A DNA stretch of 16,399 nt from positions 1 through 16,399 of the forward strand of contig CAZDTP010000072.1 of NCBI GenBank assembly GCA_964508365.1. The letters are read 5' to 3'. Positions 1,655 to 15,987 of this stretch are shown here, one piece after another (the first letter of the stretch is position 1; every line of letters starts with the position of its first letter). A model generated the notes under the pieces. The model did not search any database. It was not told the DNA's origin and saw only the letters and a program-made list of their open reading frames with translations. Both the position numbers and the translations under genes were made by a program. The stretch is from an uncultured archaeon. Lineage in GTDB: Archaea; Asgardarchaeota; Lokiarchaeia; Sigyniarchaeales; SOKP01.

Positions 1655-3691
1655 ATGTCTGATTTACAGATCAAAGTTAGAATCGGTGTTTATATCTGCA
1701 GATGAGGAGTTAATATTGGTAATAGCGTTGATTGCGATATCGTAAGAGACTTCGTTGAAATGCTCCCAGATGTAGAAATCGCGAGAGTAAACAATTTCAC
1801 TTGTAGCGATCCAGGGCAGAATATTATTAAAAATGATATTTTAGATATAGGATTAAATCGGATCGTTGTTGCAGCGTGTACTCCAAAAATTCACGAGTCT
1901 ACTTACCGAGCTGTGTTAATCGAAGCTGGATTGAGCCCCTATTACTTTCAAATGGTAAACATTCGCGAGCATTGTTCGTTTGTGCACCAAAACGACATAA
2001 AAAATGCCACTGAAAAAGCGATAAGAATGGTAATAGGAGGAATAAATCGAGCTCGCCAGTTAGAAGTCATCCCTTACAAGGAGATTCCAGTGAAGAAAGC
2101 TGCTTTAGTAATCGGTGCGGGGATAGCAGGAATGAATGCAGCTTTAGACTTAGCAAACCAAGGTACAATTGTTTATCTTGTCGAAAAAGCAGCTACTATA
2201 GGGGGAAAGATGGCACAATTAGACAGAATCTACCCTACAGACGATTGTGGTATATGAGTTCTGGCACCAATTATGGTTAGTACTTCGAAACATCCTAATA
2301 TAACCTTACTTACATACAGCGAAATCGTTGAATTTAGTGGTATCCCCGGGAATTTCAATGTTAAAGTAAAGAAAAATCCGCGGTATGTAAACGAAAAAAA
2401 ATGCACAGGCTGCGGACTATGTACGGAAAAATGTCCTATCAAAGTTCCTAACGAATTTAACAGGGGAATTGGTGAAAGGGGCGCGATTTACATACCTTTT
2501 CCACAATCTATACCTAAAATCGCCACAATAGATAGGAGTGTATGTATTGAATGCAATAGCTGTCAAAGAAATTGTCCTGCCGAAGCAATTGAGTTTGAAC
2601 AACAACCGGAATATATTAATTTAAATGTTGGGGCAGTAATAGCTGCAACTGGTTGGGACGAGTATCCCATTATGAAATATAACGATTATAAATACGGTAT
2701 TTATCCTGATGTGATAACTCAAATAGAGTTAGAGCGAATGCTAAGTCCGATTGGACCAACAGGAGGCCATCTTTACAGAATTTCTGACGGAAAAAAGCCA
2801 AAAATAGTAGCTATGATTCAATGTGTTGGTTCAAGGTCGTTAAAAAGAAACCCATATTGTTCTGTAGTATGCTGTAGCGTTGCTCTTAAAAACGCTCAGC
2901 TGTTAAAACAGGAATATCCCGACATGGAAATAGTCATATTTTACATAGATATGCGCACATGGGACAAAGGAAACGAAGAATACTATAGAAAAGTGAGAGA
3001 AGCAGGTGTTTTAACAATTCGGGGGAAAGTAGGAGATATTCAAGAAGACCAAGAAACAAAGAAGTTAAAACTTACAGCCTCTGATACTCTTTCGAATCAA
3101 ATAGTTAATCTGAACGCTGACTTAGTCGTTTTATCAACGGGTATGGTTCCATCCAAAAGTTCAGCAAAACTAACTGAAACATTAGGTTTGAGTACAGATA
3201 GTTATGGATTTCTATCCGAGATTCATGGGTGTTTAAAGCCTCAGGAGACAACTAATATGGGAATTTATATATGTGGATGCGCTGCCGGTCCAAAAAACAT
3301 ACCATCATCCGTCTCAACAGCTTTAGCGGCCGCAAGTAAGGTAGCTACATTGCTTTCGAAAGACACAATTATTCAAGAATTAATGATAGCGGAAGTTGAC
3401 GATACACTCTGTTTGGGGTGTCGTAGATGCGAAAAACTCTGTAACTACAACGCTATAAAAGTCAACGGATATGCAATTGCTGAAGTAGATGGTTTAAAAT
3501 GTAAAGGTTGCGGCGTTTGTATATCATCTTGTCCTGCTCGTGCAATTGATCTTAAATATTATCGTGATAAACAAGTAATTGAAGAAATAAAGGGGATTTG
3601 TAGTACTGCCCTTGAATATAAGGAGGAATTTATTGAATCAATTGAGCTTATTTGGAAAAGAATAGAAGCTTTAGCTCCCCATCAAACTTAA
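1655..3691 (+). CDS. hdrA: Heterodisulfide reductase subunit A, selenoprotein with two Sec (U17, U201), 678 aa
   Basis: ATG 1655 (AAGGGTG upstream) reads MSDLQIKVRIGVYICR-TGA(1703-1705)-GVNIG. It continues in frame into ORF 1760-2257, through TGA 2255-2257 (YPTDDCGI-TGA-VLAP) and into ORF 2273-3691. In-window paralogs read RIGVFICHCGTNIGG and FPTNDCSICILAP, so both TGAs occupy Cys positions. Full HdrA architecture: N-terminal domain, GAGIAG FAD motif, inserted 2x[4Fe-4S], CSVVCC, C-terminal 2x[4Fe-4S]. Confidence 0.93.
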
Positions 3692-9307: not shown

Positions 9308-10966
9308 TTAGAATTCACCTCCACATGAGGCTATTTCTGATAGAATTTGTTCATCTGTGAAATGAAGGATAGTAATTGCTCCAGTAGGGCAACTTGCTCC
9401 GCAAACACCACAAGCTTTACAAAGAACTTGATTCACTTCGATTTTTCCTTCTTTATTTTTATAAATTGCTGAAAAAGGGCACATTCTTGTACAGATTTTA
9501 CATTTTATACAAATCTCTATATCAACTTCAGCTGTAGATCCTTCCACTTCTAAAGTATCTTTTGATAAGATTCGGCTTGCCCTTGATGCTGCAGCATATG
9601 CTTGAGATATACTCTCACGAACATCAGCAGGCCAGTGTGCAGAACCGCATATAAATATTCCATCCGTTGCAAAATCTGAAGGTCTCAATTTAACATGAGC
9701 TTCTAAAAAGAAGTTGTTATCTTGCTGAGGAATTTTTAATAATTTAGCAAGCGTGGTTGAGTCTTCATGGGCTATAAGAGGGGTTGACAATACAACAAGA
9801 TCATAAGGGATATTAATTTCTTGATTTCTCAATTCATTATAGACTTCAATAATACTATCTTTAACTAGTGGAGGCTTATCAGAAGAATATTTTATAAATA
9901 TAATTCCATTCTCTCTTGCTTTTCTATAGTAATCCTCGTAGGTTGTTCCATGTACCTGAATATCTCTATAAAGTATTACTAAATTTGAATTTGGATTGAG
10001 CTTCTTTATAATCATAGCATTTTTTAATGCGGTCATACAACAAATATTTGAACAATACGGTCTTTCTTCATTTCGTGCTCCAACACATTGAATCATTACA
10101 ATATTTTGGGCAACTAATTTATTCTCTTTTAATAACGGTTCTAAATCTAATTGAGTGATTATAGATTTGCCATTATAACGAAATAAACCCTTAGGAATCA
10201 ATGGTTTTGCACCAGTTGCGACTATTATGATTCCTGTTTTTATTTTAGATATCTGTTCTCTTTCTTTTACTGATATTTCAAAATTTCCTACAAATCCCTC
10301 TACTTTAATTGGAACAGCTGACGTAATTACATGTATATTTTTATTTCTTTCTATTATATCGATTATTTCTAATAATTTTGAGGCATCCACTTCGATGGGA
10401 TACAATTTATTCAATAATCTTAAGTTTCCACCCAATTGTGATTCCTTTTCAATAATTGTAGTTTGAAATCCTTGTTTTGCTAAATTTAGAGCTGCAGTCA
10501 TACCTGCAATACCACCACCAATAATAGCAGCAGAGGGCGTAACTTCTACCTTTATCTTTTCTAAGGGTTTCAATAAAGCTGCTTTACTTATACCCATATG
10601 GATTAAATCCTTTGCTTTTTCAGTTCCTTTTTCAGGTTCTTTCATATGAACCCAAGAATCTTGATCTCGAATATTTACCATCTCAAACAGATAAGGATTT
10701 AAACCGGCTTCATGACAAGTTTCTCTGAATAAATTTTCATGAGTACGAGGGGAACAAGAAGCAACAACAACGCGATTTAAATTATGTTCCTTTATCTTAC
10801 CTCTAATCTCAGATAAACCAAGTTCAGAACATGTATAAATATTATCTGCAGCATAAATGACATTTGGTAAAGTTTTTGTGTATTCCGTGATACTCGTGAT
10901 ATCTAATATACCACCTATATTTGTGCCACAATGACAAATGAATACTCCAATTCTTATATCTTCCAT
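9308..10966 (-). CDS. hdrA: HdrA-like subunit (N-terminal Fe-S domain, FAD module, C-terminal 2x[4Fe-4S]; lacks inserted ferredoxin and the DCxxC motif), 552 aa
   Basis: Start corrected from 11020 to ATG 10966 (MEDIRIGVFICHCG), which is preceded by the GAGGTGA SD overlapping the upstream stop. Motifs GGGIAG, CSNICC, CIKCKICTRMCP, CKACGVCGASCP. Confidence 0.88.
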   Translation of the reverse strand: MEDIRIGVFICHCGTNIGGILDITSITEYTKTLPNVIYAADNIYTCSELGLSEIRGKIKEHNLNRVVVASCSPRTHENLFRETCHEAGLNPYLFEMVNIRDQDSWVHMKEPEKGTEKAKDLIHMGISKAALLKPLEKIKVEVTPSAAIIGGGIAGMTAALNLAKQGFQTTIIEKESQLGGNLRLLNKLYPIEVDASKLLEIIDIIERNKNIHVITSAVPIKVEGFVGNFEISVKEREQISKIKTGIIIVATGAKPLIPKGLFRYNGKSIITQLDLEPLLKENKLVAQNIVMIQCVGARNEERPYCSNICCMTALKNAMIIKKLNPNSNLVILYRDIQVHGTTYEDYYRKARENGIIFIKYSSDKPPLVKDSIIEVYNELRNQEINIPYDLVVLSTPLIAHEDSTTLAKLLKIPQQDNNFFLEAHVKLRPSDFATDGIFICGSAHWPADVRESISQAYAAASRASRILSKDTLEVEGSTAEVDIEICIKCKICTRMCPFSAIYKNKEGKIEVNQVLCKACGVCGASCPTGAITILHFTDEQILSEIASCGGEF

Positions 10967-10970
10967 TTTT

Positions 10971-12269
10971 TCACCTCTCCGATAAAATTTCGGTAGCTCT
11001 CGCAGCAGCACTACTGGCATCTAAAACTGATGTAGGTATATCCATAGGTTCCCTACATGCACCACATAAGAAAATGCCTTCTTTTGAAGATACTTGAGGA
11101 TGATAAGTATCACCTTTAAAGAAATTGTAATGATCAAGCTCAATTCCTAAAGCTTTAGATAATTCTTCGGCATCTTTCTTAGGAATCATGCTGGCTGCTA
11201 ATATAACCAAATCAAAAGCTTCTCGTTCTATTTCAAAAGTTTTTGTATTTTCATAGATGACAATCGGATTTTTTTTCTTATCCTCAATAATTTTAGCAAC
11301 TTTAGCCTTAACATAATTAATGTTGTATTCCCTATTTCCTCTTTTAATGTATTTTTGAAAATCTTTTCCTGGAGCTCTAAGATCTATATAAAAGATAGTG
11401 GAATTAATTTCATTATCATGTTCATAAGCAACCATAGCTTCTTTAGTAGTATACATGCAACAACATGAAGAACAATAAGGATTATAATTAATATCTCGAG
11501 ATCCTACACAATTAATAAATGCTATTTTTTTAGGCTCTTTCTTATCTGATGGCCTAACTAAATGTCCACCTAAAGGACCCGATGCGCAAATTAATCTTTC
11601 GAATTCTAATCCAGTTACAACATTATTAATCCTGCCATATCCTAAACATGGTATTAAAGTTGCATCAAATACATCAAATCCTGTAGCTATTATGATCGAT
11701 CCTACATTAAACTCGATTTCCTCATCTTTTTGAGAAAAATCTATAGCTCCCGCCCCACAAGCTTTTACACATAGTCCACATATACCATAATTTAAATATA
11801 AACATTTTTTATCATCAATTAGATATACTAGGGGGATAGATGATGGGAAGGGAATATAAATTGCGCCATGGCTATTCAAATTAGTATCAAATCTATTAGG
11901 TAGTCCTCTGATTGGGCAAATTACTTCACAATCTCCGCATCCTTTACAAACATCTTCTATTACATATCGTGCTTTTTGAAGCATCTTTACTGTGAAATTT
12001 CCTGCTTCACCTGTAATATTTTTTACTTCTGATAAAGTATGAAGTGTTATATTTGGATGACGATTACATTCAGCGAGTTTTGGAGCTAAAATACAGATGG
12101 AACAGTCATTAGTTGGAAAGGTTTTGTCTAGTTGAGCCATTCTACCTCCAATACAAGATTCTTTTTCAACTAACTCAACTTTAAATCCTCGCTCAGCTAA
12201 GTCTAAGGATGCTTGAATCCCTGCTATTCCTCCACCAATGATTAAAACACTTTTTAGGTTTTCTTCCAT
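10971..12269 (-). CDS. hdrA: HdrA-like subunit (FAD module + inserted 2x[4Fe-4S]; lacks N-terminal and C-terminal domains)
   Basis: GGGIAG, DKTFPTNDCSICILAP, CKGCGDCEVICP, CGLCVKAC, CVGSRD, CSSCCC, GIFLCGAC. Confidence 0.9.
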   Translation of the reverse strand: MEENLKSVLIIGGGIAGIQASLDLAERGFKVELVEKESCIGGRMAQLDKTFPTNDCSICILAPKLAECNRHPNITLHTLSEVKNITGEAGNFTVKMLQKARYVIEDVCKGCGDCEVICPIRGLPNRFDTNLNSHGAIYIPFPSSIPLVYLIDDKKCLYLNYGICGLCVKACGAGAIDFSQKDEEIEFNVGSIIIATGFDVFDATLIPCLGYGRINNVVTGLEFERLICASGPLGGHLVRPSDKKEPKKIAFINCVGSRDINYNPYCSSCCCMYTTKEAMVAYEHDNEINSTIFYIDLRAPGKDFQKYIKRGNREYNINYVKAKVAKIIEDKKKNPIVIYENTKTFEIEREAFDLVILAASMIPKKDAEELSKALGIELDHYNFFKGDTYHPQVSSKEGIFLCGACREPMDIPTSVLDASSAAARATEILSER

Positions 12270-14321: not shown

Positions 14322-15779
14322 CTAATAAGCCAATCCCTTTAGTATCTGGACGGTTGTATATTGATTTTTCCCGCCCATCCTCAAAAAATCCATCGCTTCT
14401 TCAATTCCTTCGACGGTCAAGTTATACATTGGGATAATGCTTGAAATTATTTTCCTCGTCCATGGTACCCATTCAAGGCGTATTAACTCGGGATTTAACC
14501 ACACCACGTTATTCTTAAAATGATTCGCAAGCTCTCTAACATAATAAATCCCAGGCATCTCATTTCGATGGTAATAGTAAATGCTTCCATAGCGTTCGGT
14601 GAGCTCCCAACTCGCCTGTACCGGAAAATAACCGGAATTCGGTTATCCTATAGCAGCGTCGCCCACCATTACAACCTTATATTTACTATTATACTTTTTT
14701 AAGAATTCTTCAAAAGGAATTGCCTCATCTGGATTCCTTTGTGCATTATTATAAAGTTTATCGTAAACACAGTTATGAAAATAATAAAACTTAAAATCCT
14801 TCCAGTGGGACATATTATTAGATGCGGAGAAAAGAAGATTAACGAGATGAGCATACGGAGTCATGCTTCCTCCAACATCCATCAAAAGAACGAGTTTTAC
14901 GTTATTTTTGCGACGTTTTTCGACTATAATTTCGATATCTCCACCATTCTTCGCAGTTTTGTCGATGGTTTTATCCATATTAAGCTCGTCAAGTTTCCCA
15001 ATTTCTTCTAATTTTTTTAGACGTTTTAACGCAACTTTTATTTGACGAGTGTCGAGCACGATATCCTTTCTATAATCAGAAAATATTCTTTTTTGGGCAA
15101 TTTGAACTGCCATGCGCATTCCTGAAGATCCACCTATCCTCATCCCCATCGGATTTTGTCCCGAATTACCAAAAGGAGAAGTTCCTTGAGTTCCTACCCA
15201 GTGGTCTCCTCCGTTATGTTCTTCGTCTTGTCTTTGCATGAGGTCTTCGAATTGCTTCTGCATTTCTTCGAGGTTAAAAAATTGGTTTAGCATCTCTTGA
15301 AAATTACCATCTACTTGTGAAAGGTCTATATTTTTTTGTAACCAATCCCAAATCTCCTCTTTAACCTTCTCCGGTGCGTTTATTAATAAGTTTCCGTCTA
15401 GGTCTTCATTGAGTTTCTGGAGCAATCCTTCTAGGAATTCTTGGAGGTCCTCAATATTTAAATATTGTTGGTATTCTCTTAATAGAATTTTCAATCCTTC
15501 GATTAACTCGGGAATAGTGATTTCCTGGTTTAACCAGTCCCATATTTCTTGCTTAATATCGTCGGGAAATTTAATTACAGCGTTTTTAAAAAAGTTAGCA
15601 AATGCGATATCGTATATATCAAAGTGGTGTTCATTTTTACATAGGATTGAACGCGATATGTAATAAAATTCGACCATATTGTGAATAAGACCTTTATTTA
15701 ACGCTTCTATCAATGCCATATATTCCGTTATACTGACCGGTAATCTTTCCTTGAGATAATAAAAATATTCTACAAACAT
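14322..15779 (-). CDS. vWA-domain protein (CoxE-like/COG3825-type), two exons 15779-14650 and 14616-14322, 474 aa after splicing
   Basis: ORFs 14643-15779 and 14322-14558 share a frame and are separated by a single TAA. MIDAS-type LMDVGGSM, YYFHNCVYD, WVGTQGTSPFG and VVWLNPE motifs. Removing 33 nt gives VGDAAMASWEL. Confidence 0.82.
14617..14649 (-). other. Predicted 33-nt bulge-helix-bulge (BHB) intron in pre-mRNA
   Basis: 3-nt bulges AUA (14651-14649) and CAG (14618-14616) on opposite strands flank a 4-bp helix UGCU/GGUA. The intron stem is GGA/UCC plus UAACCG/CGGUUA, and the exon helices are CGC/GCG plus GGUGGGC/GCUCACC. The insert contains the in-frame UAA. Confidence 0.8.
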
Positions 15780-15987
15780 TATGTTTAATTTTTCAATTTA
15801 TTCTCTTTTATAATAAAATTGAATTAATCATCAAATATAGTTTTATGTTAAATTCCATAATGGTAATTAAAATTCTGTTAAATCAGCGTTTTCTGATTAA
15901 GACAATCTAGAAATTAGATTTGTGATAGATAAAACTTGAGTAGTTAATTTTTTAACAATTTTTCTTAAAATCGAATAGATGTTTGTC

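Follow-up and report, generated by a model that had tools for sequence, protein, structure and literature searches.

A conserved 33-nt bulge-helix-bulge intron, very probably spliced, in the VWA_CoxE gene of Asgard archaea

We analyzed a 16,399-nt stretch of DNA from an uncultured archaeon (contig CAZDTP010000072.1; the whole stretch is called the window here), in which a VWA_CoxE gene on the minus strand is interrupted by a 33-nt insert carrying an in-frame stop codon. Comparison with related genes indicates that the insert is a real and conserved canonical bulge-helix-bulge (BHB) intron in the VWA_CoxE pre-mRNA, very probably spliced by the endonuclease EndA and the ligase RtcB. An earlier reading made from the letters alone (the sequence-only reading) had proposed such an intron, and its minus-strand BHB text and coordinates match the window exactly, base by base. 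The probable Asgard source that it named agrees with the nearest records, which are metagenome-assembled genomes (MAGs) of Promethearchaeota (Asgard).

The interrupted gene and its same-site relatives

The gene, its exons and the elements of the BHB are located in the window as follows.

15779..14322, minus: VWA_CoxE gene, with one in-frame stop, TAA 14645-14643
14650..15779, minus: exon 1, 1130 nt, 376 codons plus the AU of a Met codon
14617..14649, minus: BHB intron, 33 nt, with the in-frame TAA (14645-14643); precisely missing from intron-less orthologs
14322..14616, minus: exon 2, the G of the Met codon, 97 codons and the stop 14324-14322
14667-14661 / 14604-14598, minus: outer 7-bp exon helix GGUGGGC/GCUCACC, as read in the sequence
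14656..14658, minus: proximal exon helix h, CGC; partner GCG 14615-14613
14652..14655, minus: exon-side strand of the central 4-bp helix, UGCU, containing the third positions of two Ala codons; pairs with GGUA 14622-14619
14649..14651, minus: 5' bulge AUA, cut after AU; A and U invariant in 15 sequences, third position A or U
14623..14648, minus: intron hairpin (h' helix), GGAUAACCG, loop AAUUC, CGGUUAU, UUU bulge, CC
14619..14622, minus: intron-side strand of the central 4-bp helix, GGUA; alignment columns 51-54 with 18-21, 96.7% of cells paired
14616..14618, minus: 3' bulge CAG, cut after CA; variants CAG, AGG, AAG, UUG and UAG, last G invariant

Read without splicing, the open reading frame (ORF) that starts at 15779 and ends with the TAA (ORF 14643..15779) encodes 378 amino acids and lacks the conserved C-terminal 97 residues, while the same frame is then open to 14322. 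Gene callers report this shortened 378-aa product. Exon 1 alone matches Pfam PF05762 (VWA_CoxE) at 31.2 bits (cut-off, 26.4) and is 90% identical to the 474-aa orthologs, and the translation of exon 2, ASWELTERYGSIYYYH..., matches intron-less orthologs. Excision of 14649..14617 (33 nt) yields a 474-aa protein reading ...VGDAA-M-ASWELTER..., which matches most intron-less orthologs in both length and sequence. The cut position, between nucleotides 2 and 3 of each bulge, is the one stated for EndA at cbf5 introns (PMC2738675), and it rebuilds both the ATG and the 474-aa protein. The outcome that the sequence-only reading derived from the splice rule, with 33 nt removed and AU and G joined into Met within a 474-aa ORF, agrees with this excision and with the orthologs.

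The insert has strict hBHBh' geometry, in which the AUA and CAG bulges flank the UGCU/GGUA helix, and the same geometry is present in the 15 variants described below. Helices of at least 2 bp lie on either side, h in the exon (CGC/GCG) and h' in the intron (a 9-bp interrupted hairpin). In order, the 33 nt comprise nucleotide 3 of the 5' bulge, the hairpin (minimum free energy [MFE], -8.5 kcal/mol), the intron-side strand of the central helix, and nucleotides 1 and 2 of the 3' bulge.

A protein search with exon 1 returned thousands of relatives, and our statements on homologs rest on the best 120, all of which carry the PF05762 precomputed annotation. Where a source is named, it is mostly Asgard (Promethearchaeota, Lokiarchaeota, Heimdall-, Hod-, Thor-, and Odinarchaeota MAGs). 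Most of the 120 are exactly 474 aa long and read ...VGDAAMASWELTE(R/K)YGSIYYYH..., and seven clusters (P0002-P0004, P0007, P0008, P0072, and P0073) end at 376-380 aa with GDAAIG, GDAAII, or GDAAIV, a break at the intron site. Pattern scans of genome and metagenome contigs did not recover the DNA of the GDAAIV type (P0073). The sequence-only reading had placed a Met at the junction and had suggested looking for it in intron-less orthologs; these read GDAAMASWEL. The Met is conserved, since GDAAMA(P/F)YEL is found in more distant families of that order.

Within the genus, a match to the gene was found in 30 of the 42 species examined, and seven of these, the window genome included, have an insert at the exact site. 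Every genus copy with a readable junction and no insert has ATG there. When a DNA pattern built on the flanking codons was scanned over GenBank genome contigs and JGI metagenome contigs, the insert was found in 6 GenBank contigs (five labelled Promethearchaeota/Promethearchaeia archaeon, the sixth "uncultured archaeon") and in 13 JGI metagenome contigs, the other matches being unrelated bacterial chance matches. In the NCBI taxonomy, Promethearchaeota belong to the kingdom Promethearchaeati, that is, the Asgard archaea. These finds bear on the idea that the insert is an artefact of assembly or binning, or that the contig is chimeric. The window genome is a MAG in 149 contigs with 3.65% contamination, which leaves room for such errors, but the same-site insert recurs with variants in independent assemblies (at least 7 species genomes, 6 GenBank MAG contigs, and 13 JGI contigs), and we regard the probability of an artefact as practically negligible.

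In total, 15 distinct junction sequences were obtained, with inserts of 33, 30, or 29 nt. Several inserts contain two stops, and in the copies with a 29-nt insert (L043/L064 and L065) the frame of exon 2 is shifted. The AU...G that rebuilds the orthologous Met is invariant in the 15 variants: as the AU of the 5' bulge and the last G of the 3' bulge do not vary, a cut of AU from N and of NN from G always gives AUG. One metagenome copy (L071:2393-2472, minus strand) has a 30-nt insert without a stop; read unspliced, it would add 10 residues in frame, and the gene would look intact but longer.

The sequence-only reading had also proposed looking for covariation of the BHB among intron-bearing orthologs, and covariation was found over the 15 distinct inserts. 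We counted pairs for the proposed BHB in an alignment of these inserts (A1), with controls in which the 3' partners were slid by 1-3 columns and with 500 shuffles. The proposed pairs are formed in 94.7% of cells, compared to 31.6-42.7% in the slid controls, and double-sided (compensatory) changes occur in 12 of the 23 pairs. For four of five measures no shuffle (0/500) reached the observed value, and for the fifth, further pair types, 3/500 did. The covariation score is 0.464, as against 0.034-0.099 with slid partners, and 0/500 shuffles reach 0.464.

Six types of central helix are present (UGCU/GGUA, UGCU/GGCA, CGCA/UGUG, AGCA/UGCU, CGCU/AGCG, and UGCG/CACA), and two of its pairs show 8 double changes each. 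As this helix covaries over the third positions of Ala codons, synonymous changes in the exon are compensated inside the intron. The frequent G-U pairs in the central helix make the structure specific to the sense strand. In the intron hairpin, helices 4 and 5 are formed in 98-100% of cells, with compensatory changes in seven of their nine pairs. Two pairs of the proximal helix h do not vary; at the third, the 15 sequences fall into three groups of 5, with C-G, with U-A, and with no pair. The full 3-pair helix h is present in 9/14 intron-bearing genes versus 2/19 intron-less genes, with only the third pair enriched.

The outer 7-bp helix, which the sequence-only reading had counted among the flanking exon-exon helices, fared differently from the core. 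While the core structure covaries, GGUGGGC/GCUCACC is not specific to intron-bearing genes, and we rejected it as an intron-specific element: intron-less orthologs form 4-7 of the 7 pairs (mean, 5.6, versus 6.4 in intron-bearing genes). It is largely a by-product, since the Val-Gly and Leu-Thr codons give it.

Several observations weigh against a conserved BHB. The 15 aligned sequences are related, so that there were fewer independent events than the counts of covarying cells suggest, and the UGCG/CACA lineage (L043 and L064) has one C-A mismatch in the central helix. Thermodynamics alone is unremarkable, with a fold z-score of -1.26. In the window, the exact BHB folds at -22.2 kcal/mol versus an MFE of -26.9 kcal/mol, which places it 4.7 kcal/mol above a slipped version of the BHB, and in some variants the exact BHB lies about 10 kcal/mol or more above the MFE.

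Predicted splicing and rival explanations

If the insert is spliced, the UGCU of exon 1, just before the bulge, would pair with the GGUA near the 3' end of the insert, and the intron hairpin and a short exon-exon helix would flank this 4-bp helix, presenting two 3-nt bulges on opposite strands. A two-subunit, (alpha-beta)2-type endonuclease would then cut the bulges between AU and A and between CA and G, and RtcB would ligate the exons, producing the AUG codon and the 474-aa frame. The released intron would be 33 nt long and probably circular. The predicted junctions of the spliced mRNA are ...GCUGCUAU joined to GGCGAGUUGG... and likewise ...GCTGCTAT joined to GGCGAGTTGG...; the predicted 33-nt circle would read ...CCGGTACA joined to AGGATAACC..., and the predicted junction-spanning peptide is VVMVGDAAMASWELTER.

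The genome encodes EndA, on which the sequence-only reading made splicing depend, as two subunits, and it also encodes RtcB. Two ORFs of 200 and 201 aa match tRNA_int_endo (PF01974) at 98.2 and 71.2 bits; one, on G000:C9, contains 62333-62557, and the other, on G000:C1, contains 52100-52348. By our reading of the two sequences, the Tyr, His, and Lys pattern typical of catalytic subunits is present in one ORF, and the His is missing from the other. The pair fits the (alpha-beta)2 type reported for Asgard archaea, whose EndA has an L1 loop that gives it broad specificity (PMC5829648). RtcB (PF01139; G000:C18:52695-54002) matches at 559 bits. We infer that cleavage and ligation take place in vivo.

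Exon 2 is under strong purifying selection. Its 16 distinct intron-bearing copies contain no stop and no frameshift, and the ratio of nonsynonymous to synonymous substitution rates (dN/dS) has a median of 0.025 and a maximum of 0.106 over pairs with computable dS, the synonymous sites often being saturated. These values can be set against the possibility that the gene is a decaying pseudogene, in which a dead insertion brought in a nonsense codon and expression of exon 2 has ceased. The in-frame TAA and the 378-aa gene calls speak for such decay, but the frame of exon 2 has stayed open under selection, the structure of the insert has been kept through compensatory changes, and the VWA_CoxE gene is the sole copy found in a genome that scores 100% complete. 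We consider a pseudogene very unlikely, the selection on exon 2 together with the sole copy excluding it.

Another possibility is a split gene with a real stop, its 97-residue C-terminal part translated separately, or its BHB cut without ligation, and the two polypeptides assembling. EndA cleavage without ligation is compatible with the sequence, and in the CGCA/UGUG class an in-frame GTG stands two codons upstream of exon 2. However, there is no conserved start codon before exon 2 (the window reads GTA CAG GCG and the L016 type ATT GCT AAG GCG), and the first Met of exon 2 comes 20 codons in, while the preceding 19 codons are conserved. The invariant rebuilding of Met from AU and G in the 15 variants, and the presence of RtcB, also argue against a split gene, which we judge to be quite unlikely.

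The lengths and codons of the inserts bear on translational recoding, by which the ribosome would either read through the stop or bypass the hairpin as in phage T4 gene 60. A stop followed by a stable hairpin, and inserts of 33 and 30 nt that keep the frame, are compatible with recoding. Read-through is excluded because the 29-nt inserts shift the frame and some inserts have two stops. As for bypassing, neither the window nor the variants have matched take-off and landing codons around the insert, the Met would not be recreated, and the covariation lies in the 4-bp helix that pairs exon 1 with the intron's 3' end, a helix that EndA needs and that has no role in a bypass. Recoding in either form is scarcely credible.

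No RNA family, whether group I or group II ribozyme or other, matched the window at the Rfam gathering score, and the insert is just 33 nt long. A dispersed or mobile family, such as one resembling miniature inverted-repeat transposable elements (MITEs), was considered and rejected: within the genome, blastn-short matches the intron alone.

Recombination around the intron

The intron sits in the middle of a stretch of the gene that has a history of its own:

14472..14751, minus: recombination tract of about 280 bp around the intron, with a haplotype foreign to the intron-less sister gene in genome G011

The window gene is the sister of this intron-less gene (L004), and the adjoining DsrE gene is 95% identical between the window and L004/G011. 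Over the backbone the two vWA genes differ by 2.7%, versus 24.3% inside the tract (nucleotides 1028-1274 of the spliced coding sequence [CDS]). The window tract is closest to those of intron-bearing alleles (11.8-16.3%), and its 16 nearest tracts are all intron-bearing. In the 474-aa clade, the divergence between alleles with and without the intron is 25.5% in the tract versus 12.5-16.4% elsewhere.

On the protein tree, the presence of the intron requires at least 5-6 changes, and in a tree built from the tract only, 12 of the 16 intron-bearing sequences cluster despite backbones that lie in different deep clades, of the 474-aa and the 410-aa forms. A single clade or origin of all intron-bearing tracts was rejected (p-AU, 0.014). 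The intron-less genes L012 (genome G007) and L013 (genome G003) fall among intron-bearing tracts and are candidates for precise intron loss.

Judged from the divergence of the tract relative to that of the backbone, there is clear evidence of exchange: homologous recombination passes the presence or absence of the intron from allele to allele, and with it some 100-150 bp of exon to either side. For the window gene and G011, the direction of the event is moderately resolved at best. The window tract is 21-27% from every intron-less allele, and its distance from L073 is 12.5%, versus 16.9% for the backbone. The distances of the G011 tract fit its backbone (11.8-22.5% versus 13-18%). These distances favour intron gain in the window lineage, with replacement in G011 by an intron-less tract as the less likely alternative.

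Two further differences among these genes were observed. About 850 nt separate the DsrE-like and vWA genes in G011 (L004:647-1499), compared to about 160 nt in the window (15781-15943), an indel beside the gene. The genus also has two vWA forms, of 474 and 410 aa, the latter without about 64 residues around positions 96-158; the comparison of the two includes L008-L011, L039, and L079, and the intron is present in both forms.

Other candidates, known systems, and neighbouring genes

We scanned the genome for BHB motifs whose removal fuses ORFs, using junctions shifted by 1-2 nt as controls. The scan gave 161 matches versus 122-144 with shifted junctions, and 6 versus 1-2 under the strictest filter. 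Such a genome-wide scan had been suggested in the sequence-only reading; it recovers the vWA intron and an insert in an aIF2-gamma gene, but it is too noisy for introns to be counted from it. A covariance model of the intron (R1) found the vWA intron with an E value of 2.7e-14, and its next match in the genome had an E value of 0.8; the weak matches lie on C7, C15, and C55. The candidates from these searches are listed below.

G000:C43:14337-14365, minus: insert in an aIF2-gamma-like GTPase, 29-nt BHB shape, central helix ATGG/CTAT
G000:C3:30946-30975, minus: candidate insert, 30-nt BHB shape, ACGT/GCGT, hairpin -7.6 kcal/mol
G000:C7:57426-57468, minus: weak full-length covariance-model match, E 0.8, AGCU/AGCU, bulges ACA and AGG, in an open frame with no stop

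Removal of the C43 insert fuses ORFs of 124 and 396 codons and restores the universal P-loop, with GHVDHG before the junction and KTTL after it. Removal of the C3 candidate fuses 157 and 300 open codons, with ...FLCGFHV joined to TRAALRDLYVKGAKP..., and the resulting protein looks like a PurM/HypE-type protein. We lean slightly towards a broader interpretation, in which EndA and RtcB would serve in this Asgard genus as a general mRNA-splicing system, with introns of about 30 nt in several ordinary genes, the vWA and aIF2-gamma genes among them; these introns would be polymorphic among species and would move with exon tracts between alleles by homologous recombination.

The closest known counterpart is the cbf5 pre-mRNA intron of Desulfurococcales and Sulfolobales (Watanabe 2002; Yoshinari 2006; Yokobori 2009, PMC2738675), likewise a short BHB intron in a coding sequence. 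In both cases the predicted cuts fall between nucleotides 2 and 3 of the bulges, an intron stop or frame change makes the protein need splicing, the endonuclease has two subunits, and the intron is spread patchily over the phylogeny, having been gained and lost. The vWA intron differs in its gene (VWA_CoxE) and phylum (Asgard/Promethearchaeota), and its motif is a strict canonical hBHBh', whereas most cbf5 motifs have been called unconventional (PMC2738675). Splicing of cbf5 was confirmed by cDNA and in vitro cleavage, while the vWA intron is known here from sequence comparison. The vWA intron also shows exchange together with a flanking exon tract by recombination. It thus belongs to a known kind, the pre-mRNA introns of cbf5 type, while its gene and phylum are new, as is the tract exchange.

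Archaeal pre-tRNA BHB introns, including the many Asgard ones at non-canonical positions (Marck and Grosjean 2003; bioRxiv 10.64898/2026.10.13.758758), share the geometry, the expected EndA and RtcB, and a similar size range. In the vWA case, however, the host RNA is an mRNA, whose exon side must also suit codons, as it does at the third, synonymous positions of Ala codons. Another likeness is found in group I and archaeal rRNA introns that home with co-conversion of exons, namely the recombination signature of an intron allele whose flanking exon tract has a history of its own. The 33-nt vWA intron encodes no homing endonuclease, which makes ordinary homologous recombination between alleles the simplest reading. 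A further archaeal mRNA with a BHB, from Haloferax volcanii, reportedly carries it in the 5' untranslated region, in the leader, unlike the vWA intron, which lies in coding sequence. It was found as an mRNA substrate of EndA (Schwarz 2020, PMC7714728), a role that the vWA pre-mRNA is predicted to share.

The cbf5 intron has been described as the sole confirmed BHB intron in an archaeal coding sequence, those in other genes being predictions only (PMC2738675). Full-text literature searches returned no report of an EndA-type intron in Asgard protein genes, and the term "mRNA" occurs 0 times in a 2026 preprint on Asgard tRNA introns (bioRxiv 10.64898/2026.10.13.758758). For more than 20 years, in the literature searched, EndA-type splicing of an archaeal coding sequence has been confirmed just for cbf5 in Crenarchaeota. 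A second, comparatively well-supported case, in Asgard archaea, would mean that the mechanism is not a one-gene curiosity. If the intron is spliced, gene callers would systematically truncate such genes, as in the 7/120 best clusters cut at 376-380 aa. Close relatives with and without the intron, and a 280-bp tract that marks the exchange, would amount to a clean natural experiment in which intron gain and loss are directly testable. Were splicing general in the genus, protein genes of the nearest prokaryotic relatives of eukaryotes would be interrupted and would need splicing for their expression, and the gain and loss of their introns could be followed in population data.

Elsewhere in the window, two HdrA-like regions were noticed. 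On the minus strand at 9308-12269 lie two HdrA-like ORFs (432 and 570 aa), each with FAD Rossmann and 4Fe-4S motifs, which are in different frames and share an overlap of 50 nt; this could be a pair of genes, a frameshift or another interruption. On the plus strand, an HdrA-like heterodisulfide reductase gene at 1760-3691 is called as ORFs of 165 and 472 aa, separated by an in-frame TGA (2255-2257) that sits in PTDDCGI-TGA-VLAPIM. The best PDB match, 9sfi_A (E, 1e-207), has a non-standard X at the aligned position (PTDDCAMXILAPKM), and for this reason the TGA is very probably a selenocysteine codon.

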